Of a stretch of DNA of 64,000 bases, positions 1-55,260 are shown one piece after another (within the stretch, counting starts at the first letter, position 1; each line of letters opens with the position of its first letter). The notes under the pieces were generated by a model. The model ran no database searches. It saw only the letters and a list, made by a program, of their open reading frames with translations, and had not been told where the DNA came from. A program made the position numbers and the translations under genes. This DNA is from Cenococcum geophilum (taxonomy: Eukaryota). The stretch covers positions 5,022,001 through 5,086,000 of the forward strand of contig CP158635.1 of NCBI GenBank assembly GCA_050273025.1, read 5' to 3'.

Positions 1-909
1 ATAGTGCTACTTTAGGGCCCAGGCCTATATAGAGGAGGAAGGGAGATGTATAAGAGGCTAGTAAGAATAATAGTAAGAGAGAGAAAGGAGCTAAAGTAGA
101 GCATAAAAGAACGCTGGAAAACTATCTACCGTAATATAATACTGGCTAGACTAACGCTAGAGAGGTGTATAGGAGTTAAAGGTATAGAGACTAACTAAGG
201 TAAGAGGAACCTAAGCTATAGCATAGTTAACGCTATAGGGGGTAGACACCCTAGGGCTCTAAAAAGGCCTAATAAAGGTAGAAAATATAATAGTAACGCT
301 TTTAAGAATAGGAATAATAGAACTAAAAGACTGGCTCTATTAGGTGGGTGTCCTAGTAGGTAGCCTAAGATACGAATATAGCTAGCTAAGACAGATACTA
401 AAACACGTAATACTATTATGCCCCTTACGTACTAACTAAAAAGTAATACTCTTAGTAGCTAGTATAGAGAACTATAAGACACTGCTCTTAATATAAAAAG
501 GCCTTAAGGCGGTTACCTAGTGGCTTATTAGCTAAAATATACTAAACTAGTTCTGGGTTATAAAGGAAATAATAATAGAGGGCGGGGGGGTAAGCAATGG
601 GCGCCCCCTAATAACTCTATAGTAGTAGAGTAAAGTATATAATACTAGCGCGTCCGTAGGCTAGTTACGGCAGTAGTAGTTCCTAAGGAGGTTAAAAAGT
701 AAGGTAGTAGGAGCACTACAGGTGACTTATAGGCGCCTTGTAGGCGCCTTATAGGCGAGTCCTAAGAGGCAAGGAGATGGATTATGGGGTTTTCTCAAGT
801 TAAGTCTTTCTTAAGTTGAGTTTTCTCCCTATATATAAATAAGGAGTAGTCCGCGTGGGCCCAATAGGGATCCGAATCGGACGTTAAGCAATGAATTATT
901 ATTATTATT
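1..909 (+). mobile_element. 3' end of Tad1-like LINE (end of ORF2, 3' UTR, (ATT)n tail), RIP-degraded
   Basis: Reverse complement of ~33588-34471, part of the full LINE copy. Ends ...GGACGTTAAGCAATGA(ATT)n. Confidence 0.9.
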
Positions 910-1523
910 AAAATCTATAACCTTTAGATAAGGTGGTTTTTCAAATAGACCTTCTTAAGGTGCTTTTATGGCTAGGTTAACTTAGGCCTAAATTTGCTAA
1001 TCTATAAGGGCTTATAGTTGCTAGATCTATTACTCCTAGTCTTCTAGCTTATTAAGGATAATTGTAGTAGACGAACTCAACGTTAGTGGAGTTATTTAAC
1101 TGATAGGTAGATGGGAATTAAGATGGAATTTAACATTAGGATTGTCCTTATCGTTAGGATTATCCTTTAATAATTAAGGTGGAATCTTGTGGAATCTCGT
1201 CCTGTAACAATTAAGGTAGGATTTTAATTAGGGTTATCTTGTAATAATAAGGTGTCAGAGTCTAATAATAAGGTAGAATTTCTTTAAATAATTAAGTAAT
1301 AGCTAAATAGCTTCTTATGTCGGCGGACCGGGCTTATAACTGTTAGATAACTTATATAGAGCTATTTATTAATAAAATAGGTTGATTAATTAATGATCTT
1401 AATTGTCTTGATAGATGCTTAACCTAGGGCCCCTGGGCTTAGACGAAGATATTTATAATACACGTGACCCATACACGTGGCCCGTGCACGTCCTACGCCA
1501 CCGAGAATATAGATTATCTAACA
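910..1523 (-). mobile_element. 5' end of a Ty1/copia element (LTR 1341-1523 plus leader), cut off by the LINE
   Basis: 183-bp LTR bounded by a 10-bp inverted repeat TGTTAGATAA...TTATCTAACA. On the minus strand it is followed by GTTATAAGCCC, a RIP form of the GGTTATGAGCCC-type copia primer-binding motif. Confidence 0.7.
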
Positions 1524-2084
1524 GTACCTCATCAAAAGTGTCCAGTCCGAGGCTATACCAAAAATGATATTTTTTACCCAAATGCTATATAAAAGCCATA
1601 TAATTAATTCCGGAGTTTTAAAAACAATCTAAAGTTGCTTATAGATATATAATCTAGTAATTGCGATACTTTTTTTACTGTTTAAAATCTACAGTCCCTT
1701 ATTAAAAATCCATACAAATTTAAAAGAAAAAAAATATTTAAAGGTTTATAATAAACCTTTCTGCTTTTAAATATAAATCTTTATAAGATATTGAATTTAT
1801 ATAAGGTGATAAGCTCCGCACCACTTAGCTATATAAACCTACAAAAGGTAAACAAGTGACTGGCTTAATGCTAGGCACGGCTGTGCGGAACAATATATAT
1901 AGGCGAGGTGACTTCGTCACTTGACAATTTATAAAATATATATTAAATATTATAGATTTAATAGAGAATTAGCAGGATATTTAAAAGAGTCATTGGTTTT
2001 TAACTTTAAAAAAAGGTTATAATAGTTAGGTTTTATATATAATATAAACTTTAAATATTTTTTTTAAAGCTTTAGAATTAATTA

Positions 2085-3035
2085 GTAGTAGTAGATTTAA
2101 TTTACCGTCCGACCCGGTCCCCCTAATGGGTCCACGCAGACTAATTCCTATAGGAAAAGCTTATATTACACTAAGAAAACCTATTTTTTTTGGGTGAATA
2201 AAAAACCTCCAAGGGAAACGTAAGAGGTAATACTTCTAGATAGCATCCGTACTACATTAACGGGAGGAGAAAAACACCATCAGGTTGCTGCTTTAAGACT
2301 TCCCTTACGCGAGAGTGTCTAAAATGCCTGTCTTGCCCTTGTCTGCCATTTAAACCATTTTTACTACGTTTGTGTATTGCCTGTATAAAGTTATATGCCT
2401 ATCCCTAGCTCCTTTTCTAAGTCTCCTGTAAATATCTCCTAATAATAATAACGCTTGCGCTCCGCCTGGGCTTGCATGCTAAGGTCTCTTATCTATTCCT
2501 TTATTAAAAGGTTTCTATAATAGGGTGTATATAACTTAGTATTGCTTTTGCCCTAGGTCCTAACCCTAGGCCCTTATACCTATTTATAAGGTATAGGAGG
2601 ACGCTCTAGTATTTAATAGGGGTAACTAGTCCCTATAACTAGATACCTAGGTTACTAGGTAATGTTAAAATAGGGGGCTTCTGCTACGCTTAAGGCGCGG
2701 ATTGTTTGCGTATATATGTGGTTGCTATATAGTGTATATAGTATTTATAGGAGGGAGGGGGTACGCCGGAGGGATAATTGCTTGTTAATTCGAATGACCG
2801 AACGTGTATAATAGACGTAGTAGCTATATTCAAACTTTTTGCTAGGGCTTACCCCCCAGTAAAAAAATTTCACACTACTACCACTACGTCGCTGCGCAGG
2901 CGCTGCGCAGCTGTATATATGTCTCTGCGTTTGCTCTAGTAGTCTATTGACACGATCTAAATAGAATATTAATAGTAGCTGCTAGGTTCCCGGGCTTTAC
3001 CACGTGGAGGTGCAGAGGCCGATTTCATTAAGCCC
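2085..3035 (-). mobile_element. Non-autonomous ribozyme-capped SINE-like retroposon, copy 1 (family a)
   Basis: TSD TTTAGAATTAATTA at 2071-2084 and 3036-3049. (CTA)n tail, LINE-like 3' stem-loop, collinear with 54115-55022, no recognisable ORF. Confidence 0.85.
2923..3035 (-). ncRNA. HDV-like self-cleaving ribozyme (predicted)
   Basis: P1 GGGCTT/AAGCCC, P2 CTCTGC/GCAGAG, P3 ACC/GGT, L3 TCCACGT, J1/4 GGG, long P4 hairpin, J4/2 GCAAAC. Confidence 0.8.
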
Positions 3036-3528
3036 TTTAGAATTAATTATATAGTAATCTAGTAGGGTTATATAAGGAATCTTTAGCCCTTACTCGGGCT
3101 TACAGCCCTCCTATTCTCCTTGTCAGTTCGCCTCTATATTAGGGTATTACTATACCTACTCTTTACCATATTATCCTCTTCTATTAATTCTTTTATTACT
3201 TAAACCTAGCCTACCTACTCCCTACTATATACCTGGGCAATATGCCTTATATATAGACCAATCCTATACTCTTTTAGGTAGTAGCTAACAGTAAGCTAAA
3301 GGCTTCGCCCTTAAGCAATCTTATAATCCTTTACTTTTTACCTAAGATAACCGCGTATACTATAGAGTAGGTATACTAGTAGATGTCTAGTAGATGGCAT
3401 CCGTATATAACGGTTTATTAGAATATAGATTAGGTCCTCTACTTTACCTAAAACAATCGCGTATACTATAGAGCAGCTATATTAGCAGATATCTAGTAGA
3501 TCGTATCTGTATATTATAGTTAGATAAA

Positions 3529-9920: not shown

Positions 9921-11183
9921 TAATTATGCGAAACGCGCTTAACAAAGTCGACTTGAAACCCAGCCTGCGAATATTTTCCCGATATGGCTCTTATTTAGTA
10001 CACTAAGGGGAATCGTGTCTAATAGAGGTACCGTATTTAACAGTGCATTTTAGTCTTTATTCTGTCTCTTATTAAAAATATAGTAAAGAATAAGTACTGC
10101 CTTCTACCTATAAATAAACGGGCAAACAGAGCGTCTAAATACGTTATTAGAACACTACCTCCGCTACTATATCAATTATTAATAGGATAATTAGACATTA
10201 TAGTTAGCTTTAGCGCAGCACGTATATAACATAAGTATCTATAGCAGTATAAAAATGACCCCTTATAAAGCATTATTTGGGGTAAAAGTAAATAACCCCT
10301 AGAACATTAAGGACATTGTTCCTAAAAGAGAGGCACTAGCAGCGTCTAAAAGAATTAAGCAAATAAGAATTCGCAGAAAGGAACTTAAAAAGCACTTACT
10401 AGACGCCTAGGCTGTGTAAAAAAGGTACTATAACGAAAAATATATGCTAAAAGAATTTAAGATAGGAGACGAAGTCTTACTATTTATAAAAAATATCCAA
10501 ACAAAACGCATTAAGAAGAAGCTGGATTACCAGTGGCTTAGACCCTTTAAGATAGTTAAAAAAACTAAAGAAAACCAAGCCTATAAATTAGAATTACCGA
10601 AATCTTATCTAATATATTTTATATTTTATATTTCCTTACTAAAGCTATACTGGAGAAAAGATAGTGCGGAACCGCCCCTATCTAGAGAAATTAATAGGGA
10701 ACTAGAATAGAATATAGAAGACATTTTAGACTAAAGATGGCGCCAGAAAAAGCGCGAATTTTTAGTTTATTAGGAAGGATACTTTTAGGTATATAATAGT
10801 TAGGAACCTAAGGAGTACCTTTAGCTGGGATATAATACTATAATTAAAACCTTTCTAAGAACTAAAGGTAAAGACTTAGAAATAGTTCCGGATATACTAT
10901 AGGTAAAGTAATAGGGAAGACCCTATAAATTAAAACTATAAAATTAAGTATAGGTATTAAGAACGGAAACGTTTTGCTATTATAATAGGGATCCTAAAAT
11001 CCTATAAGAGGAAGCCTATAGGGATCTATAGGAAAACTACTAGGGATACTATTTAAAGAAGACGCTGTTTAAGAAGGAGTAGTAGTACTATAAGAAGTGG
11101 CCTTAGGGATTTAGAAAGATCCCCTAGGGATAAAAGGAGAGTATCTAGCCTAGTACCAGAAATACGCAGTAAAGTTAATAGTA

Positions 11184-12197
11184 GTAGTAATTCTTTAATT
11201 AACGTCTGATACGGATCCTACTAGCCCACGCAGACTACTCCGTTATAGGGGGAAAACTTATAATTTATATAAAGAAAACCCTGCAGTTGGGGGAAGGAAA
11301 AACCCTATAAGCCACCTTAGTAGGATAAAAAAACCTAAATTGCCATATTTGCACGTAGCAGCGGCCCTACGGGCCTATAGCACGTCCTCCTCCTTAGATG
11401 TTTTAAACTCCTTAGGAACTACTACTTCCTTCTCTAGCTTATTAAAGCTGGGGTTCACTATATCCCAGCTAGGCCCTGCTAATTAATTGCTGTGTCTTAT
11501 TGTCTTATTCCGTATCTTACCTATCCCCTATATACTATCTCTTATAGACTATTACCATATACGCCTTGCCTCCCCCCCCCCTAGAGCTATTAAAGGCGTA
11601 AGGGGGATTTATTTGTTCTAACTACCGTAATACTAATAAGCGAGCGGGATATATTGTGTATTTGGGTATCTTTTATGCTTAGGCCCTAGCTAGGCCCTTT
11701 CTAAGGGCACTACTCCGTTAAAAGGAGACAGGGAAAACCGTGGGTCATAATCTAGGCTGCTAGGTAGTATTCGGTAGTTAAAAACGGCGAGTAACCGCAT
11801 ACTCCGCGGGCGATTGCCCTGGGGGTTAGGAGGGGCCGTATATTTACTCATTCGTTTATTTACTCCGCGTTCACTCATTCATTAATATAAAAGGTTGTTA
11901 ATGCTTTCTATTAGGGGTTAGGGGATGCTATTAAATGCTATGCATCCATATTGGATCGTATAGGTGCCTTAGATAGGAGAATAATATAGTAGTTATTGTA
12001 TTATAGAGGGCCAACAGTAGTGGTTTTTAAGATCTCACCATCCGAAAATTTTTCACCACCGCCCTTAACGCCCACAACCACCACCAGGTCCTGTCCACAC
12101 GCTATACGACGTCTCTGCGTTGGCTTTAGATCTAAACTTTAAAGACTAGGTTCGTAGCCGTCACCGCGTATAGGTATAGAGTCCGATTTCGACGGCC
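11184..12197 (-). mobile_element. Non-autonomous ribozyme-capped SINE-like retroposon, copy 2 (family b)
   Basis: TSD GTAAAGTTAATAGTA at 11169-11183 and 12200-12214. (CTA)n tail. Last ~60 nt closely match the LINE 3' end at 843-900. Confidence 0.85.
12113..12197 (-). ncRNA. HDV-like self-cleaving ribozyme (predicted, 85 nt)
   Basis: P1 GGCCGTC/GACGGCT (7 bp, G1.U wobble), P2 CTCTAT (RIP of CTCTGC)/GCAGAG, P3 ACC/GGT, 7-nt L3, J4/2 GCCAAC. Confidence 0.8.
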
Positions 12198-12449
12198 TGG
12201 TAAAGTTAATAGTATAAAGAGGAGCAAAAGAACAGCCTATAAAGAATTAAAAATTTTAAGGAATTATAAGGCACCTATAGAAATACTACCCGTTTATTAT
12301 ATATAGGGATTATAATAGTATACTGCGTTTATATAGATTGTCACTAAAGCTTAGAATAAAGGTATCCCTAAAGTATAAAGTTAATTCCTAATAATAGGGC
12401 ATTTTAGAGGCACCTAAGAGGCACTATATAAAGCTATTCTATAAGAAGA

Positions 12450-13289
12450 AGGAAAGAGCTAGGTAATAACTTAAACACTAGCAGCAGCAATAGGAGCCTC
12501 CTCTTCTATCTTAACGTTATTATTAACGGTATTATTAGCTCCTCTATCCCCAGAAGTATTAGCACTTCTACTAATATTTTTTTTTAAAATAACGGGTACT
12601 GGAAGGACTAGCACGGGCGGGAGACTAGTAAGGAGAATATTTATCTTAACCTTTATCGCTATCCTTAGTATCCCTAGGTTCCAAATCGGCGTCTAAGTAG
12701 GGATTAAAAAGATATTAGCTAAAGGAGTTAGCATAGTTCCTAAGTAAGTTACTAGAGAAACTTACCTAGCCAGAGTAGCCCGCATAAGAGTATAAATATT
12801 ATTATTAATAAGGACAAGCTATTTGCATATACACTCCTAGATATTATATATCCAAAAATATTACGTCTCTATAGCAGTGGAAACCCTTATAGAATTAAAG
12901 AGTCTATAAGTAAGGGAAGATACCTTTTATCCCTGCCTATTACTATTAGGATATTGGCAGAAATCTTAGATAGCGCGTTAGAGCCTATAAGTCTTATACA
13001 TATAGACAGCGGGGATCTAGTATAATTAGCGAAATTTAGAATAGGATGGAATAGGAAATACTAGAACGTAGGTCTTTCTCCTACTGCGATAATAGGAGCA
13101 CTTGGATTTATTTTTGCTGGAGTAAGGCATTTTATAGACGTAGGAAGGATCCTACGTAAGAGTATAAACGCAGCAATAACAGTATTTTAGGGAAACTGCT
13201 ATAGAAGTAATAGATGCTGTCTAGGGCGTTACCGGGAGATTAATAACACTGCCGCCGGTCTAGGGACGCGCAGAAGAACTATAAGCCAT
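12450..13289 (-). pseudogene. Antisense accessory gene of gypsy A, Cys6 zinc-cluster-like, with intron (3' end approximate)
   Basis: ATG at 13289. Frame reads KYCYCCV...YVY...SKCSYYRSRRKTYVL, with Tyr codons as probable RIP products of Cys. GTATTT...GCTAAT...TAG intron at 13061-13017. Confidence 0.6.
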
Positions 13290-13882
13290 TATAAGAGAAT
13301 ACTTTAAGAAGTTAGCATCGTTATAAGAGATAAGGTGGGGATCCTATTACTTATAAACGCGTTAAGAAAAGATAATAAGGTAGTAATAGAAGTACGGCTA
13401 GAGATATAGAAGCTAAAAGGCGAGATATAATAAAAACAGCCTATTTAAGAACGAGATGAATGGTGTTATTAATAGAAAGATAAGGGAGAGATAATAACTT
13501 ATAAATAGAAAGAAATTAAAATAAAAGACGTTATTATTAAGGCCTATTTAGGTAAATAGGAATAGTAGTTAGTTAACGCGTCACACCGGATAACCTCTAG
13601 ATCTATTTATAACAAATTCCCAAAATTAAAGAGGTAAATCCCACTAAATTTTTATTACTATTATTAAAATCCTATTACAAAAACACTATAAGGAGCTAGG
13701 GTAGAAGAAGAGTAAAGGAATAAAAGATAAAGTAAAGTTCTACGCTAGTAAAGAGCTGACAATAAGTCGCATTATAGAGTACCTTTCCACTAAGGGTTTC
13801 CCTAGTGGTTTTAGCTAGAACTCTATAAAAGCTTAATAGAGGTAAAGTCTTAGAGGACTAAAACCCTAAAAGGGGAGGTAAT

Positions 13883-33014: not shown

Positions 33015-33587
33015 TAGTTAACCGTATATACGTTATCTATTTAGATAATATCTTAATCTACTTAGAAGATAAGGATTAACATAAGTAATATATCCGCGAA
33101 GTACTGGAACATTTAGATAATTAGGGCCTCTACGCTAAGGCGTTAAATTATATCTTTAACACTAAGTAGGTTAAGTTCCTAGGTTATATTATAACGCCTA
33201 TAGGTATAGTTATAGACCTAGTACGGGTATAGATAATTTAGGAGTAGCCAGAGCTAGAGAGCTATTAGGATATTTAAATGTTCTTAGGCTTTACCAATTT
33301 CTATAAGCGCTTTATTTATAACTACTTAGACGTCACCTAATACCTATCTAACTATATTATAAAAGCTTCCTAAGACCTAATCTAAGGAGTAAAAAGCTTA
33401 AAGGCGGTAAGGGAAAAAACTAAAAAGGGACTAACTAAATAGTATAAGCTATAGTTATAGCCCAGAAAGGTTTAAAAGGCCTTTTAAAAACTTTACGCAA
33501 AGTTTATAAAAGCTCTATTACTACAGCATTTTAACCTAGATTAGCTATTAATAATAATTATTAATGCATTAAATTTTGCCTTTATTA

Positions 33588-36500
33588 ATAATAATTCATT
33601 ACTTAACGTCCGATTTAGATCCCTATTGGGCCCATACGGACTACTCCTTATTTACATATAGGGAGAAAACTCTATTTAAGAAAAATAAGAAAACCCCATA
33701 ATCTATCTCCCTGCCTTTTAGGACTCGCCTACTTAGCGCCTATAAGTTGCCTATAGTGCTCTACTACCTTACTATTTAACCTCCTTAAGAACTACTACTG
33801 CCGTAACAAGCCTATGGACGCGCTAGTATTATAAACTATTACTCTACTACTATAGAGTTACTAGGGGGCACCTACTACTCGCCCCCTTACCTTTTATTAC
33901 TATTTCCCTTGCAACCTAAAACTAATTTAGTACATTTTAACTAATAAGCCACTAGGTAACCGCCTTAAGGCCTTTTTATATTAAAAGTAGTGTATTATAG
34001 TTCTCTATGCCAGCTACTAAGAGCATTATTTCTTAATTAGTGCGTAGGGGGCATAGCAGTATTATATGTTTTGGTATCTGTCTTAGCCAGCTATATTCGC
34101 ATCTTAGGCTACTTACTAGAACACCTACCCAGTAAAGCCAATCTTTTAGTCCTATTATTCCTGTTCTTAAGAGTATTACTATTATATTTTCTACCTTTAT
34201 TAGGCCTTCTTAGAGCCCTTAGGTATTTACCCCCTATAGTATTAACCATGTTATAGCTTAGGTTCGTCTTACCTAAATCAGCCCCTATACCTTTAACTTC
34301 TATTTACCTCTCCAGCGTTAGTCTAACCAGTATTATATTATAGTAGATGGTTTCCTAGCGTTCTTATATATTCTACTTTAACTCCTTTCTCTATTTTACT
34401 GTTATCTTTACTAACCTCTTATACGTCTCCCTTCCTCCTCTATATAGGCCTAGGCCCTAAAGCGGCACTATTCTTCTTTTACTTTCTTTACCTGTTTCTC
34501 TAATATCTCTTCCCTACTTTAAGGTTATTAGTTTATTCTCCTACAGGGCACCCTAAGGTCCCTCCATAGTTTACTTAGGCGTATCTTAATATACTTTATA
34601 ATATTAGAGTTACGTTTATTTTATATCCTTTATATTACAGCGGCTTTAATATATAACTATAGGGGGGGAATATTAGATTCCTTTTTAAGCAGTGCTGTGG
34701 CCGTTCGCTTATACCCACCTATAATACTCTAAAGGCAGGCTATTTAGACCTTTTAAAGTGATTTAAGGAGTAATTTAGGGGGGCCCTTCTTAGTTTCTCT
34801 AATGGCCCAAATACTAGATCTATATATTATGGTTAGCTAAATAACTACTATATATAGTAGGCGTAACCTCTAGAAGTATGGACCCCATATAGAATTAACA
34901 ATCCTAGATAAAGCAATAAACTATACTTAGCCTTTATAGGCCGCTTGCGCTATATATACGCTCCACTAAAGCTTACTATCTACCTATACTCCTAATACCC
35001 TTAGGCCCTAAACTAGTTAACCCCTAAAGCCTTAGATGCGAATTATATGCTAAAGATCTGCAAATTAGTTGCGTTTTCTTATAAAATAGATTAGCTAGTA
35101 TTTCTCTAGTAAGAATTAGACTCTATAACATTTTACCTATTCTATATAAGTATTATAGGCTTTCTCTAGTATTCTGCAATTCTCTACGGCTATTAGCCCG
35201 TATATAATTAGGTTTATATTATTAATAAAGCCTATCCCCTAGGTCGCCCCTTCCTTAAAGAAGTTAAGTAGGTTACTTATAAAGAAAAGGAAGAGTATAG
35301 GCAAGAGGGGTAATCCTTATAGTATTTCTGTTATAACTATAATAGGGGGGCTCTGGTATCTACTAAAGACTAGTAATATTTCTTTCTAGCCTATAAACCC
35401 TTAAATAAATTATATAATCCATTCTAAAAAGCCCTTTACCCTAAGGATATATAAAAGACGCTTATAGGGTATATTATTATAGGCACCACTAATATCTAGG
35501 TTAAGCATTAATACTATAAAGTCCTTTCGCATCGCCTATATAGATTTAATAGTGGCAGCAAGTAGCGTAAGTACTAATAGTGTTAAGCGGTTCTTTCTTA
35601 CCCCCATTTAGCTTTATAGTAATAGGGCGTGTTTCTCTACTATATTTACTATATGTTCCGCTATTACCCTTTCTAAGATCTTGCTAAGGGTATTTTCTAA
35701 GGCAATAGGGCGGCAGCTTCCTAGGATTAAGTAATCTACTTTACCTTCTTTTTATAGGACAACTATTATTATAGATCTTCTAAGTCGCGGGTAATAGCCT
35801 ATAGCAAAGCATACTCTAGCTATATCTACAAGCTAAGGTACTATAAGTAGCCTATAGGTTTTTAGGGCCTTATTTAGAATCCCATCTAGTCCTAGTACTA
35901 TATTATTTAAAAGGCGGCTAATAGTTCTAGCCATTTCCTCTATTATTATATCGCTGTTAACCCATAGGCAAGTTACTAGTGTTTCGCCCGTGATATTACT
36001 AAGGTCTACTAGAGCTAGTTAGGGGAAAAACCTTTCTATAAGGATCTTTGCCTTCTTATTATTGTTATTTATAGCCTGTAATTCTCCTACTCTTCGTAGG
36101 GATAATAAGTATAGGTCTTCTGCTAGGCGCCCTACCTTTTTCTTTACCTATTTTGCTATAGCCTAAAGGCCCTTATTATAGGGGAGGCTTAGGTTAAAAG
36201 TATGCTTATTTATAAACCGTCTCTAGTTATTCCTTACTTCTTTTTTTAGGGTATTCTTTAGCTAGTTTCTTATGTCTTTATATTGTCTCTTATCTTTAGG
36301 GTTATGGCTACTTATATATTTCCTTCTTACTCGTCATTAGCTAGTAACTAGAACTGCGCATTATATAGACCATATATATCGCGTATAGGGGCCTAGTTTT
36401 AAGATTGGGCAGTACTCTTCCAGCCTATTTTTAATCGCTGCCTAGATCCTTTCTAGTCTTTAGTTAATTTCCTTAGGGGTAGCTAATAAGCCTCGCTTGT

Positions 36501-39154
36501 TTAGTATTAGGTAGATTTCTTCTAGGTCTTAGAGTTATTATTTAACTGCATTAAGGAAACTATCTGTCTTAAGCTTCCTTATTATATATCTTTTTTTATT
36601 TAATTACGCTTTGGTATCTAGGTCTAGCTATATCTAAATAGGGATATAGTCTAAGGTAAGTGCCCATTCTTCTTTAGGGTTATACCTTTTAAGTCTCTAG
36701 TATAGGCCTTCGTCTATAAATATAAGGTCAATTATACTTCTAGCGGTACCTTATTACCATATAATTGCTCCTAGGGGGGTAGCTAGCTTAAGGCCCCAGA
36801 TATCTATAGCTCTTAGTAGGCACTCTAACTATTAATCTACAGCAATATAGATGCCCCCCCACTATAGGTAGTAGAGGTTTATATCTCCTAGTAAAATAAA
36901 CTCTATACCTTCAGTTTTTAGTAAGCTTATTACTAATATAATATTCTCTATTTATAGGACCCCTTTAACCCTAGGGTTATACACATTAATAATTTATACC
37001 GGTCCCCTATATATTTAAATTATTATAACTATAATATCTAGGTTAACTGCCTACTATAACTATAAGGATAGGCTAATAGCCTTACTAATTATAAAGTACA
37101 CGCGTATAGCTGCTTTTGGTTCATATAGGAGCTAAAATCCTTAGGGGCAGTATATTAATTATATAAAGGTATTATAATACGGTTCTTATATAGTAAGGAT
37201 ATAATATTTCTCTAAGTCTAGACTGTCTAGTAGGGGCCTTATAAGGCGGTGGTTTATATTGCCGCAGTTATACTATATAATAGATAGGTGGCGGACCCCC
37301 AGCAAGGGTCCTTTAACTCTCCTTTATTCCTCGCTTCTTCTATTTCTACTTTCTCTAAAATATTCGGAGCTTCTATCTCTTATATCTATACCCTAGTTAC
37401 TACTTATTTTATATAGAGCTTTCCATTCCTATATTTTATATTCCTATTAGCGCTTCTATATCTAAATCTATTATTATTACCGGTTCTTCCCCTATTCTTA
37501 CTAGTCGGCTATATACCCTTTATAGGTCGGCTGCGAATATTATATTTACCGCATTAAGTCTAATTCTTAATTATCCTAGTCTTAAGCCTGCTATTGCTAT
37601 CCATAGGGGTCTTCCTACAGGGCGTCCTCTCCCTTATATCCCCTATAACCCTTATATCCCTAATCGGTCTAGTAATATCGCGCGGCGTCGCTTCTGGCCC
37701 GTTAAGGCTTGGGATAGCTAGCCTAGCCCTCTAGTATTAAAGGTAGGAAACGCTAGAAAGGCGCCTACGTCCCCCTAGCTTATCGCCTATTATTTCCATT
37801 TATATAACCTAGCGTATAGTTATTCCCATAGCTATTAAGCCCTTACCTTCCATCTTCTATATTTAATGCAGTCTTCTCTTTCCTACGCCTTATATATACT
37901 TCGGTAGCAGTTCGCGCATTTTATTTAATCTTAATTTAAGCAGTATCTTGTATCGTAGGGGCCTGCATAGTAGCCACAGCATACCTATACTGCGTATATA
38001 GATTAGGTGTATCCCTATTATACACAGCGATAGTATTATTTTAGGTGTAGTCTATAGTTATAAAGCCTTATATTATATATAAGGCCATTTATAATTATTC
38101 CTTTTTAAATAAGGAGTTTTTATATTCCTAATATATATATACTAATAATAAGGGAGCTATACGTTTATCTGGCGTCTCCCTAGTAAGTCTCTAGCAACCC
38201 TTGTATCCTCTTATTATTCTTATTATATACTTAGTTTACATTTTCCTATTAAAGCTATTAAATTCGGGTAATTTCGAGTCCTAGTATAAGGCGTTCCGTT
38301 TATCTTACTATCTCCTATATAATTGCTATATTATCCGCCTAGCGTCCCTTTTCTACCCTAAGGCTTATAGGAACCGCTAGGACTTTAACTAGGTAATCCT
38401 CGCGAAGTACTTTTATACTAATACGTTCTCCTAGCCTATCCCCTACCCTTATAGCTCGTTCCTTTACCTATTAGTCCTTTAAGGTAACTCTAATATCTCC
38501 GCTCTTAAGGTGTCGGACTATAATAGTATTGTAAACCTCTTTACATATCTTTATAAGGACTTCTGTTTCTAATTATCCCCTAAGCCCCTCTACTTATTCT
38601 ATATTTAGTTATATTATAATTATATACCCGTTTATTAACTTAAGGGGAGTAGGTTCCCTATGCTATAAAAGCGCAGCTATGGCGGCCTAGGTGCGGTTCG
38701 CCGGTAAGGGGGGGTTATACTTATTTTTAATTTTGCTTAGCCATTAGAGGATTTAATTAAGGGTTTACTAAAGGGGCGCCTAAGATTCGCTAAACTAGCA
38801 GAGCCATTCTGCTAGCTATATTAGTTTGTTATAGCTAACGGTTACTCCCCTACAATTCTAGATACTAGACGCGTCCAATAGGCTTTATATTTTATTAGAT
38901 ACCTTCTTAATAGAGGTATTTCCGCTTTATAGTGTGGTATTCGCCCGTCTTTATTATAGAGGGCCATTGCTAGGCATAGTTCTAGCGGTCGCGCGCGAGT
39001 GCGAGCCACCGTCATTCAATGTGTGCCTCCCCTGCGATGCATGCATCTTAGGGGGATTCTCTAGGTGTTTTTCAGGGTTCTTTTAGTTAGTTTTAGTCTT
39101 TTTAGGCCAGGTGCAGCAAGAGCTCCTTTTTTCTGTAATTAAGGAGCTCTATAT
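33588..39154 (-). mobile_element. Full-length Tad1-like LINE, RIP-inactivated
   Basis: 14-bp TSD TTTTGCCTTTATTA at 33574-33587 and 39155-39168. ORF1 from ~39015 with knuckles ~37800-38000. ORF2 endonuclease from ~37290, RT RPIAL ~35710 and GF(VDD) ~35225. (ATT)n tail. Confidence 0.93.
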
Positions 39155-42100
39155 TTTTGCCTTTATTAGTATTCTACTATAACCTAATAGGTATCCAGAT
39201 GCTACCTAGCTCTATTAAAGACCAGTAGTATTTTATAGCAGAAAATTCCAGGGACCTAAAGTTAGGTATTATACTCACGATAAGGAACTACTAGCTATAG
39301 TTAACTGCTTTAAATAGTGGTAATACTACCTTAAGCACGCGAGCTATACCACTTATATACTCTTAAATTACTATAATCTACGCTACTTTATAACTATAAA
39401 GGAGCTTATACCTTAATAAGCTAAATAGGTAAAGGAGCTTATATAATTTAATTTTAAGATTAAATATAAGTTAGGGAAAAACAACCCTACTAATAGACCG
39501 TTATAACGGCTAGACTATACTAAAGGCTTTAAAATAGGAGAAGGAAAATAGATAATAGATATCTTACTCCCTATATTATAGAATAAGCTCCGGGTATAGG
39601 ATGCTTAAGCACCTATAGCTCTATACACTAAGTCTTAGGCAGTGCAAGCCCTATTAGTTTCTACTAACGTTCCAGCTAGTACCTAGTCTGTTACTAATAA
39701 GGGTCTAAATATACCTAGATAGGACATCCCTAATATATTCTTGGAACCTAGTAATATACTATCCCTAATTACTAAGCTATCCCCTTAAACCAATAGCGAA
39801 GCTATTAAGCAATTGGAACTCAGAGCCCTATAATAACTAAAGGACTTTAACCTTATAGCGGCCTTCCTAACGTATACGCATTAAAGAGTTATAAGATTTA
39901 TAGTACTATTTAGTCTTATACTTAAAGTAGTATAGGACAAAATAGCTTTTATTTAGGAACTATCTAAAAGGTTAACGGATCTCATCTATAAGGTATAATA
40001 GAGGGACGCTTCCTATACTATCCTTAATGCGGAAGTAGACCGGAAATATAATAAAAAGGAAGCTGCTAGGCGCTACTATTAGGAACTAAACCCAATGGGC
40101 CTACTATATAAAGGTAGTAAGGTTTGGGTGCTATAAGAAGCAAATCTACAATAGAAGATTCTTATAAAGAATTATAATAATCCTCTAGGCGGCCACTATA
40201 GTTAAGTAAAAATAGTAGAATTACTTTAGCGCAAATACTATTGGCTAAGGCTTAATTAGGAAGTAAAGGAGTATATTAGCTATTATAAGAAGTGTTAAGT
40301 ATATAAGATCCGCAGGCACAAGCCATAGGGTCTACTTAAATTAGTTCCCCCCACTAGTAAGCTATAGCAATATTACACTATAGACTTTATTACAGATCTC
40401 CTGCTATCTAAAGATAGCTAAAGATAAATATATAATTCGGTCCTCATACTTATTAATAGGTTTTTAAAGTACGTTTAATATCTTCCTATTAATAAGACGA
40501 TTAATATACAAGCGCTAGCCTACCTAATTAAGGAGAAATGCTTTCTTAAAGTAGATTAGCCATACTTTATTATTACTAATAGGGGCAGCATCTTTATAAG
40601 CCAGTACTGGTTAAACCTATGCTTCTATTTAAAGATAGACTACCGTTATAGTACAGCTTTTTATTTATAAATAGATAGGTAGATAGAACGCTAGAACTAG
40701 GAACTAGAGTTTTACCTATAGATATATTTAAACTACTAGCAAGATAACTAGTATAAGCTACTTCTGTACGCGGAGTATACTTACAATCTAAAATAATATG
40801 CATTATATAAGTATGCACTAATCCAGATTACCTATGGCGTTTAATTATTTAGGTTTAATAGTATATCTAATAATTACTAGCTAAGGCTGTATAATTAGTT
40901 ATAGGATCCTACCAAGAAGTTTAAGGATATCTACTAAAGAGTATAAGGATACCTTTAGGAATAGGAGGAGTAATAGAAGTATATAAAGCAGAGCCTATAA
41001 AATGCCTAAGAGTAGTAAAGACTTTGGTATAACTATTAGCACTAAGATAAGCATTTTGGAGTAGGCGATAAGGTTCTATTATATTTAACAAATATTAAGA
41101 CCTATTAACTATTAAAGAAGCTTAATATAAGATACCTAGGTCCCTTCTAAGTTAAGAAACGAATTAGTAAGCTAGCCTATTATCTCTAACTACCCCCATC
41201 TATGGCTTATATGCATTTAGTGTTTTATATAAACCTACTAGAGCTATAGCATAGACCATTACTAGAAAAGAACTTCCGTCTAGGCCCAATTAAATACCCT
41301 AAGGTAGTAGGCGAGCGGTACGAGGTTAAAGCTATACTACGCTATAAGTCTGTTAAGAATAAGCTTTAATTTGAAGTTAAATGGCTAGGCTAGCCCGCTA
41401 AGGACTCTATATAAGAACTAGAGAATTACCTTAATTATTGCAAAGATATTCTAAAAGAGTATTAGGACCAAGGTCTATAATCTACAAGTTATAAAAAGCG
41501 CTCTAATATTATAGTGTTATTGCGACCTATAAAGAAAGCTTATAAAAAGAGTAAATAGGTTAAATTGGATATAGAATAGATAGGCTCCGGAAACTGTAGG
41601 GATAGGGCTACGGCCTAAGGCAGGGTAGGTCCTTAGCCTTTTTACGTATATAGTATAGAGTTAATAGGGCATTTTGCTAGAATTGTATTCCTATTTATTA
41701 ATCTATACTAGGAATATTGTTCTTAGGGCTTCTAAGCCCTTTCTAAAAGCCTTATAAGGCCTTTTCAAGCACCTAATTAAGGTCCTTAATTGCTACTACG
41801 TATAAGAACGAATCCTAAAAGTCTAAACCATAAATGCCCAATTTAAAAAGCCACTATGCCTTATTATTAGGAGTAGGATCAGTATCTATTGGGCTACTAA
41901 GTAATGGCTGATAAGAATGGGATCTAGATCCCTTAGTAGGGGTATAAGTAGGTATTAAAATAGGGGTAGGACGATAAGGTGTAGCTAGAGCAGAGACTCT
42001 TAAACGCTTAATATTAATATTAGGTCCAAACTAATACTAATAAAGCTCTTGCGGCGTAAGCTTATAGTTAATAAAGACATAATTAAGCCTAAAATGAATA

Positions 42101-54106: not shown

Positions 54107-55260
54107 TATATATAAGATTCAATTTACCGTCCGACCTGGTCCCCCTAATAGGTCCACACAGACTAATTCCTATAGGAAAAACCTCCTTACTAAGAAAAAC
54201 CCCATTTTTAAGTGTACAAAAAACCCCCAGGGGAGACGTGAGAGGTAATATTCCAGATAACATCCATACTACATTAACGGGAGGAAAAACACTGTTAGGT
54301 TGCTGCTTTGAGACTCCCTTTATATAGGAGTGTCTAAATACCTATCTTGCCCCATCTGCTATTTAAACCATCTTTGCTATATTTATATATTGTTTATCTA
54401 AGTTATATGCCTATTCCTAGCTCCTTTTCTAAGTCTCCTATAAATATCTCCTAATAAATAACACTTATATTCCGCCCGGGCCTATATACTAAGGTCTCTT
54501 ATCCACTTCTCTATTAAAGGGTTTCTACAACAGGGTGTATATAACTTAGTATTACTTTTGCCCTAGGGCCCAAGCCTAGGCCCTTATACCTATTTATAAG
54601 GTATAGAAGGATAATCTAGTATTTAATAGGGGGCCCAATCCCTATAACTAGATACTTAGGTTACCGGATAATATTAAAATAGGGGGCCTTTGCTACGCTT
54701 AGGGCGCGGATTGCTTATATATGTATATAGATACTATACGGTGTGTGTAGTATTTATAGGAGGGAGGGGGTACGCCGAAGGGATAATACTTGTTAATTTA
54801 ATGTCTAAATATGTATATTAGAGATATAGTAGCGGTGTTTAAACTTTTTTGCTAAGGCTTACCCCTTAGTAAAAAATCTTTGCACTACCACGACGTCGCT
54901 GCGCAGGCGCTGCGCAGCCGTATATACGTCTCTGCGTTCGCTCTAGTAGTTTATTAACACAATCTAAATAGAACATTAATAGTAGCTACCAGGTTCCTGG
55001 GCTCCACCGCATAGGGGTACAGAAGTTGCTTTTCTGGAGTCGTCTTTTTAACTGGTCTGGCGCTAAGGCCTATAAAAACTCTGCTGTTCTAACGGCGTCA
55101 AGGGTTAAGTATTCGAAGGCCCCCTCTAGCCATAACGTAACGCTGCTGCATCAGTAATAGACGAGATCCTCTCTCTTAGCTTAACCATGCGGACAAGATG
55201 AGACGGAAAGGAACCCCCATAGGACCGTATGGGTCAGATCTCGATTTTAGTGTTCCTTTC
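54107..55260 (-). mobile_element. Ribozyme-containing SINE-like retroposon, copy 3 (family a, with ~220-nt 5' extension)
   Basis: TSD TTAATAATATATA at 54094-54106 and 55261-55273, splitting the gypsy E chromodomain. Collinear with 2094-3015. Confidence 0.85.
54930..55041 (-). ncRNA. HDV-like ribozyme (predicted, RIP-damaged, internal)
   Basis: P1 GACTCC/GGAGCC, P2 TTCTGT/GCAGAG, P3 ACC/GGT, L3 CCTATGC, J4/2 GCGAAC. Confidence 0.68.

Follow-up and report, generated by a model that had tools for sequence, protein, structure and literature searches.

A decayed retroelement of Cenococcum geophilum belongs to a fungal family of non-autonomous elements headed by a predicted hepatitis delta virus-like ribozyme

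Self-cleaving ribozymes of the hepatitis delta virus (HDV) type have been described at the 5' end of retrotransposons that lack long terminal repeats (LTRs). In Trypanosoma cruzi, L1Tc and NARTc carry the HDV-like Pr77 ribozyme in their first 77 nt, with cleavage at +1 (PMC3185411), and in R2, RTE and baggins a 5' HDV-like ribozyme frees the promoter-less element from a co-transcript, hundreds of copies that are conserved downstream and differ upstream being the typical signature (PMC6765202). Retrozymes, on the other hand, are hammerhead-bearing non-autonomous LTR retroelements (PMC9695139). As for distribution, a 2019 review places the ribozymes of long and short interspersed nuclear elements (LINEs and SINEs) in metazoans (PMC6765202) and a November 2026 paper places ribozyme-bearing retrotransposons in plant and metazoan genomes (PMC13725137), as far as the excerpted text of both goes. 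No fungal case of a ribozyme-headed retrotransposon was found by full-text searches of the literature, although primary surveys or supplements may list fungal cases. Here we analyse a 64,000-nt stretch of the genome of Cenococcum geophilum (assembly GCA_050273025.1, contig CP158635.1, positions 5,022,001 to 5,086,000, hereafter the window), and in it a repeat of 1,014 nt on the minus strand (12197..11184), which we call copy 2, copies 1 and 3 being two further ribozyme-bearing elements of the same window. By comparison with its relatives, copy 2 is a decayed member of a new fungal family of non-autonomous elements headed by an HDV-like ribozyme whose self-cleavage is predicted. We consider it highly probable that it represents the fossil, damaged by repeat-induced point mutation (RIP), of a non-coding, non-autonomous non-LTR retrotransposon of about 1 kb whose RNA would have been headed by this ribozyme.

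The closest analogue is the L1Tc/NARTc pair, in which a ribozyme also stands at the head (~ 77-87 nt) of a non-LTR element RNA and is likewise found on a non-coding, non-autonomous element, NARTc, that relies on a LINE and is dispersed with target-site duplications (TSDs). The copy-2 family differs in being fungal, in its TAC-repeat tail and in the lack of any sequence relation that we could find. Furthermore, in the fungus several unrelated non-coding bodies bear the ribozyme, whereas none was detected on the LINE of the window. With R2, RTE and baggins the family shares the 5'-terminal position of the ribozyme and the pattern of copies conserved downstream and differing upstream. However, R2 is autonomous and site-specific in rDNA, and the ribozymes of these elements precede open reading frames (ORFs), for which a role as a translation aid has been proposed, while the copy-2 element has no ORF. 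Retrozymes resemble it as non-coding, non-autonomous elements that process their RNA with a small ribozyme of their own and have it copied by another element's enzymes, but they differ by the hammerhead class, the LTR architecture and a circular RNA stage, and nothing suggests circles in the copy-2 family. All of these comparisons are drawn from excerpts of the cited papers.

The window is AT-rich (GC mostly 0.24-0.43 per kb) and contains just 10 stop-to-stop frames of at least 100 amino acids. The first 87 nt of copy 2 (12111..12197, minus strand) can be folded into an HDV-like ribozyme with predicted cleavage 5' of G12197, which is position 1 of the ribozyme (G1). On the minus strand, 12197..12111 reads GGCCGTC-GAAATCGGA-CTCTAT-ACC-TATACGC-GGT-GACGGCT-AC-GAAC-P4-AGCCAAC-GCAGAG-AC, the segments being, in order, P1, GAAATCGGA, P2, P3, L3, P3', P1', P1.1', GAAC, P4, J4/2, P2' and a final AC. 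P1 is formed by 12191-12197 with 12156-12162 and is followed by J1/2 (12182-12190); P2 is formed by 12176-12181 with 12113-12118 plus the pair G12183-C12111, and P3 by 12173-12175 with 12163-12165, closing L3 (12166-12172), of which 12170-12171 pair with 12154-12155 as P1.1. GAAC lies at 12150-12153, P4 at 12126-12149 and J4/2 (AGCCAAC) at 12119-12125, with C12123 as the candidate catalytic C75. As it stands, copy 2 forms all seven pairs of P1, including a G1.U wobble, and all three of P3, together with 6/8 pairs of P2, 1/2 of P1.1 and 6/7 of P4. An earlier reading made from the letters of the window without any searches (the sequence-only reading) had assigned copy 2 to a second family, which shares the HDV-type ribozyme and the tail architecture of copies 1 and 3 but not their body. 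This description holds, its copy-2 coordinates are all correct when re-read from the sequence, and the body gives no alignment to copies 1 and 3. Short motifs had also been put forward as shared. Of these, the J1/2 motif GAAATCGG is indeed present at copies 1 and 2, its two occurrences in the window, but is not significant alone (0.74 expected, 19 of 100 shuffles reaching 2), while GCAGAGAC occurs five times against 0.21 expected, a count reached by none of 100 shuffles, and at each of the three ribozymes one of these five forms the 3' end.

In any 64 kb of sequence the eye can pick out single-sequence folds this large, and the fold could be a chance fit in AT-rich mutated DNA, copy 2 being then an ordinary dispersed repeat. 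Relatives were sought by scanning public metagenome contigs with the pattern GAAATCGGNCTCTGCACCN7GGT, which fixes J1/2, the 5' strand of P2 and P3 and leaves all else free, including the 3' strand of P2. At least 120 loci were obtained, and the same pattern gave 0 loci in viral contigs. Among the 120 listed loci, 112 carry a complete ribozyme (97 of them distinct) and 8 were left out, the ribozyme being cut by the contig end or missing its 3' part. Pairs were counted on the 68 distinct listed relatives in which P1 lies directly before GAAATCGG, and the counts of pairing, covariation and conservation given below refer to these 68. A further 30 rows of copy-1 type, with a 2-nt spacer, were kept outside this count and their P1 and P1.1 pairing was tabulated separately. 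A MAFFT alignment of all 115 ribozymes was rejected for pair counting, P1 of the two types being out of register because the copy-1 types have two extra bases in J1/2.

Over the 21 proposed pairs (1428 cells), 96.8% of the cells hold standard pairs, compared with 26.6-45.1% when the partners are slid by 1-3 columns. Changes on both sides are seen in six pairs, three in P1, two in P1.1 and one at the base of P4, and the covariation score is 0.107 against 0.054 after shuffling, with 0/500 shuffles as high. Cleaner copies devoid of P1.1 and P2 complementarity would have spoken against the fold according to the sequence-only reading; P2 is paired in 99.4% and P1.1 in 90.4% of the cells, an outcome in favour of the fold. 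The listed relatives show the nested double pseudoknot of HDV-like ribozymes, in the order P1-P2-P3-L3-P3'-P1'-P1.1-P4-J4/2-P2'. Among them, P1 takes the forms GGCCGTC/GACGGCT, GGTCCTC/GAGGCCT, GGGCT(C/T)C/GGAGCCC, GGGCGAC/GTCGCCT and GGGCGGC/GCCGCCT, P1.1 pairs GU of L3 with AC in copy-2 types and CC of L3 with GG in the others, and P4 is a hairpin whose sequence and length differ in each subtype. In J4/2, C75, A77 and A78 (copy-2 numbering) are conserved in at least 90% of the rows, and the rows that bear T at C75 are RIP-mutated copies; from its position, C75 would be the catalytic cytosine. The G1.U wobble, noticed already in copy 2, occurs in 64/68 rows and is genuine to the copy-2 family rather than an artefact of RIP.

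The comparison with relatives also reveals what copy 2 has lost. Compared with the majority of 28 relatives it has 112 differences (88.4% identity), of which 78 are C>T or G>A, 42 of these transitions being in CpA/TpG and 22 in CpG context, a pattern that reads as a RIP-like signature. In the DNA run X1, other copies mostly have G/C where copy 2 has A/T (A>G at 55 and T>C at 52 places, compared with 28 each for C>T and G>A). At the positions that matter for the fold, most copies and nearly all RNA reads carry, in minus-strand letters, G12177, C12176, G12171 (L3 position 2) and G12126 (base of P4); the restoring letter is found in 1123/1138 of the first-mate-on-plus RNA reads at 12176, 1132/1138 at 12177 and 1214/1219 at 12171. 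Because the less-mutated copies have G/C there, P2 (CTCTGC/GCAGAG), one pair of P1.1 and the base of P4 are restored. A comparison of multiple copies, by which the sequence-only reading had proposed to recover L3 and J1-4 as they were before RIP, gave GU/AC as P1.1. Its own guess of GC/GC was half right, the un-mutated form being 5'-GU-3' in L3 with 5'-AC-3' (G-C and U-A), and only A12171 is a RIP product, T12170 and A12155 being original. Its point that P1.1 had changed in a compensatory manner stands, and is stronger than proposed because both pairs count as compensatory when compared with CC/GG in copies 1 and 3. With lesions in P2, P1.1 and P4, copy 2 itself is probably inactive and silent.

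We next consider the 5' end of the element. In 79 listed copy-2-like loci, the column information is at most 0.19 bit from -5 to -1 and then rises to 1.73 and 2.0 bit at +1 and +2. Among the 52 listed loci with enough flank, 35 have an exact TSD; its length is 11-19 nt, most often 14 nt (14 loci) or 15 nt (11 loci), and it abuts G1 in 32 of these 35, a gap of 1 nt being seen in one and of 2 nt in two. As for the 17 loci with no exact TSD, 7 are full-length copy-2-type elements, whose TSDs have presumably decayed, and the others diverge after 84-334 nt. The TSDs start with TA in 31/35 copies, often as TATAT or TAATA, and the last 6 nt of the element are TACTAC in 17/35. The 5' flanks of the listed loci (L001-L120) have a TA-rich signal of 0.5-0.84 bit at -15 to -10, the distance at which the TSD starts. 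Together, the base composition of these sites suggests that nicking occurs at TA-rich sites that share microhomology with the tail, which would reflect a target preference of the endonuclease and possibly pairing with the TAC tail. The ends of the copies place the predicted cleavage site at G1, in the sense that they mark the 5' end of the RNA and not the chemistry that made it.

In copy 2, the TSD is TACTATTAACTTTAC on the minus strand, at 12200..12214 on the 5' side, and is repeated exactly (15/15) at 11169..11183 on the 3' side. The 3' tail TTACTAC (11184..11190, minus strand) is a TAC repeat that runs on into the first 3 bases of the TSD, and such a TSD together with a simple-repeat tail is what is found in LINE-dependent retrotransposons. 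The dinucleotide CA (12198..12199, minus strand), with TG as its counterpart on the 3' side, separates the TSD from G1. It could derive from an original CG that took a different mutation on each side and would then belong to a TSD of 17 nt, and CpG-context transitions are frequent in copy 2 (22/78). Two untemplated bases are about as likely, because 3/35 listed relatives have 1-2 extra bases there. Whichever applies, the 5' end of copy 2 is at G1 or at most 2 nt from it. An empty site is also represented: in a DNA contig of run X1, 11168 is followed directly by 12200, with 1031 bases absent and 15 letters shared. In runs X1 and X5, three contigs skip copy 2 (11152-11168 joined to 12200-12206) with 16-21 other letters at the joint, and for this reason the DNA around copy 2 seems to be an older repeat with paralogues free of the insertion; DNA depth remains high in the flanks. 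Returning to a chance fit, the covariation over the 68 relatives, the exact homology boundary with TSDs at G1, and the fact that the mutations of copy 2 away from the consensus break pairs that the family keeps leave it with next to no probability, although the repetition of GAAATCGG in the window, not being significant, agrees with it.

A model built from the 68 relatives (R1), copy 2 itself being among them, finds three strong sites in the 64 kb, with E values of 2.5e-22, 1.4e-13 and 6.1e-08 against 0.37 for the next best, and matches the copy-2 ribozyme with 101.8 bits. A motif scan with purines and pyrimidines collapsed gives the same three sites and one chance-level match, shuffles giving 0-3. 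Two further R1 matches on the plus strand, 41167-41256 (12.0 bits, E 0.37) and 41907-41997 (9.3 bits, E 1.6), were rejected as ribozymes, being judged at chance level; the second has GCAGAGAC at its end, and both could be very decayed ribozymes or chance.

Rfam gave nothing at gathering score in the window, and just two unrelated matches at E<=10 in 10000-13500. Likewise, clean relatives of copy-2 type (L026, L004) and of copy-1 type (L073) gave no HDV match at E<=10. Two GC-rich relatives, L060 and L031, do match HDV families full-length and in register, although below threshold (gathering scores 37-50 bits). L060 matches RF00094 (HDV_ribozyme, 27.4 bits, E 1.6) and RF01787 (drz-agam-1, 18.6 bits, E 9.7), L031 matches RF02682 (HDV-F-prausnitzii, 20.6 bits, E 4.4), and these three are among just six matches at E<=10 across 4227 Rfam families. 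The fungal ribozymes have in common with the three families the helix order and spacing, the C-N-A-A of J4/2 and a total length of 85-87 nt, and the L3 of the copy-1 type (UCCACGC; UCCGCGC in L060) aligns with that of HDV in RF00094. They differ from them in their scores, 18.6-27.4 bits and far under the gathering scores, obtained with the GC-rich L060 and L031 only, in the copy-2 P1.1, which is G-C/U-A and not two G-C pairs, and in the G1-C of the copy-1 type in place of G1.U. Both L031:1455-1535 and L060:1223-1307 (minus strand) are un-mutated, with the canonical G1.U and a CC/GG P1.1, and differ in P1, L3 and P4. In contrast to the fungal repeat copies, these two are similar to each other upstream of G1, both with CGGCCTCTG, and no TSD was seen within 1.3-1.5 kb. 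In these two loci the repeat unit may begin before the ribozyme, or there may be a partial duplicate upstream. Together with L098, which is GC-rich as well, they suggest a taxonomic range beyond a single species.

Downstream of the ribozyme, the body of copy 2 (11236..12110, minus strand, ~ 880 nt) is non-coding and unrelated to that of copies 1 and 3. In a BLAST of the window on itself only short pieces of ribozyme match these copies (E 0.06-0.78), and clean relatives of the copy-1 and copy-2 families have no common high-scoring segment at E<=1e-5. The listed relatives are 993-1028 nt long, and a clean one of copy-2 type has a GC content of 0.50. No long ORF is present in clean copies, the longest stop-free frames being 94 (L026), 109 (L004) and 70 (L073) amino acids with no conservation noted, and the element hence encodes nothing itself. 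A SINE in the strict sense was rejected: in 11000-12400 ARAGORN gives no tRNA, Rfam gives no tRNA, 5S or 7SL match, and the head is the ribozyme.

The 3' end of copy 2, by contrast with its body, is shared with a LINE. About 100 nt resemble both LINE 3' ends of the window, 11179-11281 being 70% identical to 33583-33696 over 115 bases (E 2.9e-06) and 11175-11258 76% identical to the LINE copy at 1-911 over 93 bases (E 3.1e-12). This region contains a conserved stem-loop, GTCTG...CAGAC (11204..11235, minus strand), common to copy-1-type elements and LINE 3' ends, with 11 predicted pairs of which 2 show compensatory changes (for example GTCTG/CAGAC versus GTCCG/CGGAC in the LINE). It lies ~ 20 nt upstream of a TAC or TAT repeat tail in copy-1-type, copy-2-type and LINE elements and is presumed to be the recognition site of the LINE reverse transcriptase. 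The larger LINE copy (33583..38400, minus strand) has its endonuclease at ~ 36694-36996 and its reverse transcriptase at ~ 35200-35736. When its frame 33901-38400 is translated with the stops, at least 118, read as X, RVT_1 scores 33.1 bits (cut-off 29.6, E 6e-08), Exo_endo_phos_2 scores 20.3 bits, below its cut-off of 27.4, and the zf-CCHC match is weak; on stop-free fragments Pfam gives RVT_1 and zf-CCHC below threshold only. With RVT_1 above the cut-off and the endonuclease match below, the element is therefore a RIP-decayed LINE. Of the second copy (1..911, plus strand), which is truncated where the window begins, a 3' part is present; it too carries the 3' stem-loop, along with a TAT-repeat tail, and is 85.4% identical to the first over 908 bases (1-911 versus 34471-33583). 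The TAT tail of the LINE could be a TAC repeat after C-to-T mutation. In light of its 3' end, the LINE at 33583..38400 is a candidate for the autonomous partner of copy 2.

In the mechanism that we propose, the element would be transcribed, probably within a longer read-through transcript or from an undefined promoter. The ribozyme would fold into the nested double pseudoknot P1/P1.1/P2/P3/P4 and cut directly 5' of G1, and the resulting RNA would begin exactly with the ribozyme; of this step, the fold and the exact 5' ends are seen in the copies. The reverse transcriptase of the partner LINE would then recognise the 3' stem-loop and TAC tail that both elements are seen to share, while its endonuclease would nick a TA-rich site where cDNA synthesis would start on the tail and proceed all the way to the 5' end. 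The product would be an insertion with a TSD of 14-15 bp abutting G1, as seen in the relatives.

The similarity of the 3' ends could also be explained by descent, the copy-2 element being an internally deleted LINE that retains the two termini of the parental LINE, as in the NARTc/L1Tc pair, with the ribozyme primarily a feature of the LINE. NARTc does have its ribozyme in common with L1Tc according to the excerpted description (PMC3185411). However, no ribozyme was detected on the window LINE, which may be 5'-truncated, either by R1 or by the RIP-tolerant collapsed scan, and in the BLAST of the window the copy-2 body matches the LINE at the 3' end only. Moreover, at least four different non-coding bodies bear the ribozyme, and no ORF resembling a reverse transcriptase was found within the 1.3-1.5 kb examined downstream of it in the 120 listed loci. 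We thus regard an internal deletion as possible but rather unlikely.

The four or more bodies comprise the copy-2 type with a subtype 79% identical to it, the copy-1 type, the L030 type and the L029/L040 types, and some of them are mosaics of shared parts. L030:498-1326 (plus strand) is a chimera of 829 nt, with P1, L3 and P1.1 of copy-2 type followed by copy-1-like sequence and further blocks, and its sequence suggests that modules are exchanged between families. An extension of this, which we hold to be unlikely, is that the ribozyme is a portable 5' module acquired repeatedly by unrelated non-coding RNAs, the LINE itself being without it and the head having evolved for non-autonomous elements and spreading among them; the reverse transcriptase might, for example, switch template to a ribozyme-bearing RNA at the end of cDNA synthesis. 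If so, a head of this kind and a LINE-type 3' stem-loop would make any RNA a promoter-independent parasite of read-through transcription, and several families of ~ 0.8-1.0 kb with different bodies, as well as chimeras such as L030, would be explained.

The homologous heads of the other two window copies are at 3035..2921 (copy 1) and 55042..54928 (copy 3), both on the minus strand, and the two copies are 82% alike (2093-3016 versus 54115-55023). Copy 1 is an element of 951 nt (3035..2085, minus strand) with a TAC-repeat tail and a 14-nt TSD, TAATTAATTCTAAA (3049..3036 and 2084..2071), that abuts G1; because the next base is G on both sides, the boundary could be shifted by 1 nt. In the copy-1 family P1 starts with G1-C and not G1.U (GGGCTCC/GGAGCCC in clean relatives). 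Such a G1-C is unusual among HDV-like ribozymes. In copy 3, ribozyme position 1 is C rather than G and position 3 forms an A.C mismatch. The tail has decayed to TA/TAT repeats, and the sole TSD candidate, AGTTAA[A/T]AAAG, is short and imperfect.

The stretch is represented in sequencing runs of two organisms, and four runs were mapped to copy 2 at 80% likeness. Contig pieces at least 80% alike to copy 2 number 4996 and 3348 in two DNA runs, hence the family is very abundant. In the raw RNA run X24, 16631 reads mapped to copy 2, and first-mate-on-plus depth is far above the opposite one in every covered bin, for example 7379 versus 83 in 12002-12042. In most stranded libraries, a first mate on plus corresponds to minus-strand RNA. 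The element family is hence transcribed in sense. Most of the RNA reads are less than 90% alike to copy 2 and 71% run on into unlike sequence, and they therefore come from other copies and subfamilies. Moreover, 669 RNA fragments begin at 11914 and large groups of reads have loose ends at 11609, 11786, 11970, 11987, 12011 and 12015, which suggests that expressed relatives have body segments arranged unlike those of copy 2.

Several observations weigh against a ribozyme-headed, LINE-dependent element. In the RNA, no pile-up is seen at G1; instead, 495 fragments end at 12185, 12 nt inside the element, where the depth beside is 1138, and this may be due to 5'-end loss in the library or represent a real 5' end. 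The depth of 607 in 12166-12206 falls to 0 beyond 12207, but zero depth outside the element is uninformative because the reads stem from other copies with other flanks. Among the pairs, P3 shows no covariation at all, and the invariance of J1/2, the 5' strand of P2 and P3 has no weight, being fixed by the search pattern. The rows are paralogues of a few lineages, such that the shuffle statistics overstate significance, and the P1 and P1.1 types, about five and two, would represent few independent events. One of the abundant subtypes, GGTCCTC/GAGGCCT, has a U.C mismatch in P1, which leaves 6/7 paired and accounts for 16 unpaired cells at this pair. No Rfam HDV model reaches gathering score on any tested copy, and the copy-2-type ribozyme has no HDV match at E<=10. 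Finally, no ribozyme is detected on the window LINE either by R1 with filters off or by the collapsed scan, which leaves the partner relation incomplete.

Part of these observations would also fit a 5' domain that is a structured but non-catalytic RNA, which might for example bind the LINE protein, serve as an internal promoter or initiator, or act in translation or stability. The end at G1 would then result from precise initiation, of the kind seen in LINEs that have an internal promoter. Genomic 5' ends tell where an RNA starts and not how that end arose, the gathering of fragment ends at 12185 rather than 12197 and the sub-threshold Rfam scores agree with it, and the 77 nt of L1Tc are also a promoter in the excerpted account (PMC3185411). 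On the other hand, the domain has the specific HDV topology, with a P1 of 7 bp from position 1 on, a P3 of 3 bp with an L3 of 7 nt, a P1.1 of 2 bp that covaries and links L3 to the nucleotides right behind P1, a P4, and a P2 that closes the knot, it conserves C-N-A-A in J4/2, and its GC-rich relatives align end to end with three HDV-family models. Furthermore, the two readings are not exclusive, both functions being present in L1Tc. We therefore judge a purely non-catalytic head to be improbable and keep the HDV-like ribozyme as the preferred reading, in which comparison lends good support to the fold and to the ribozyme-defined 5' end, while catalysis is predicted.

The concept of ribozyme-headed retrotransposons is left unchanged by a fungal family. 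However, the latter provides naturally covarying variants of the P1.1 pseudoknot (C-G/C-G versus G-C/U-A), and its hundreds of genomic 5' ends would constitute an in vivo record of the predicted cleavage site. It is also a very abundant transcribed repeat family that is wholly missed by Rfam-based annotation, and the covariance model and the 28-base pattern can be used to annotate such elements in fungal genomes. HDV-like 5' ribozymes of non-LTR retrotransposons being established in animals and trypanosomes, the family of copy 2 would extend this mechanism to fungi.

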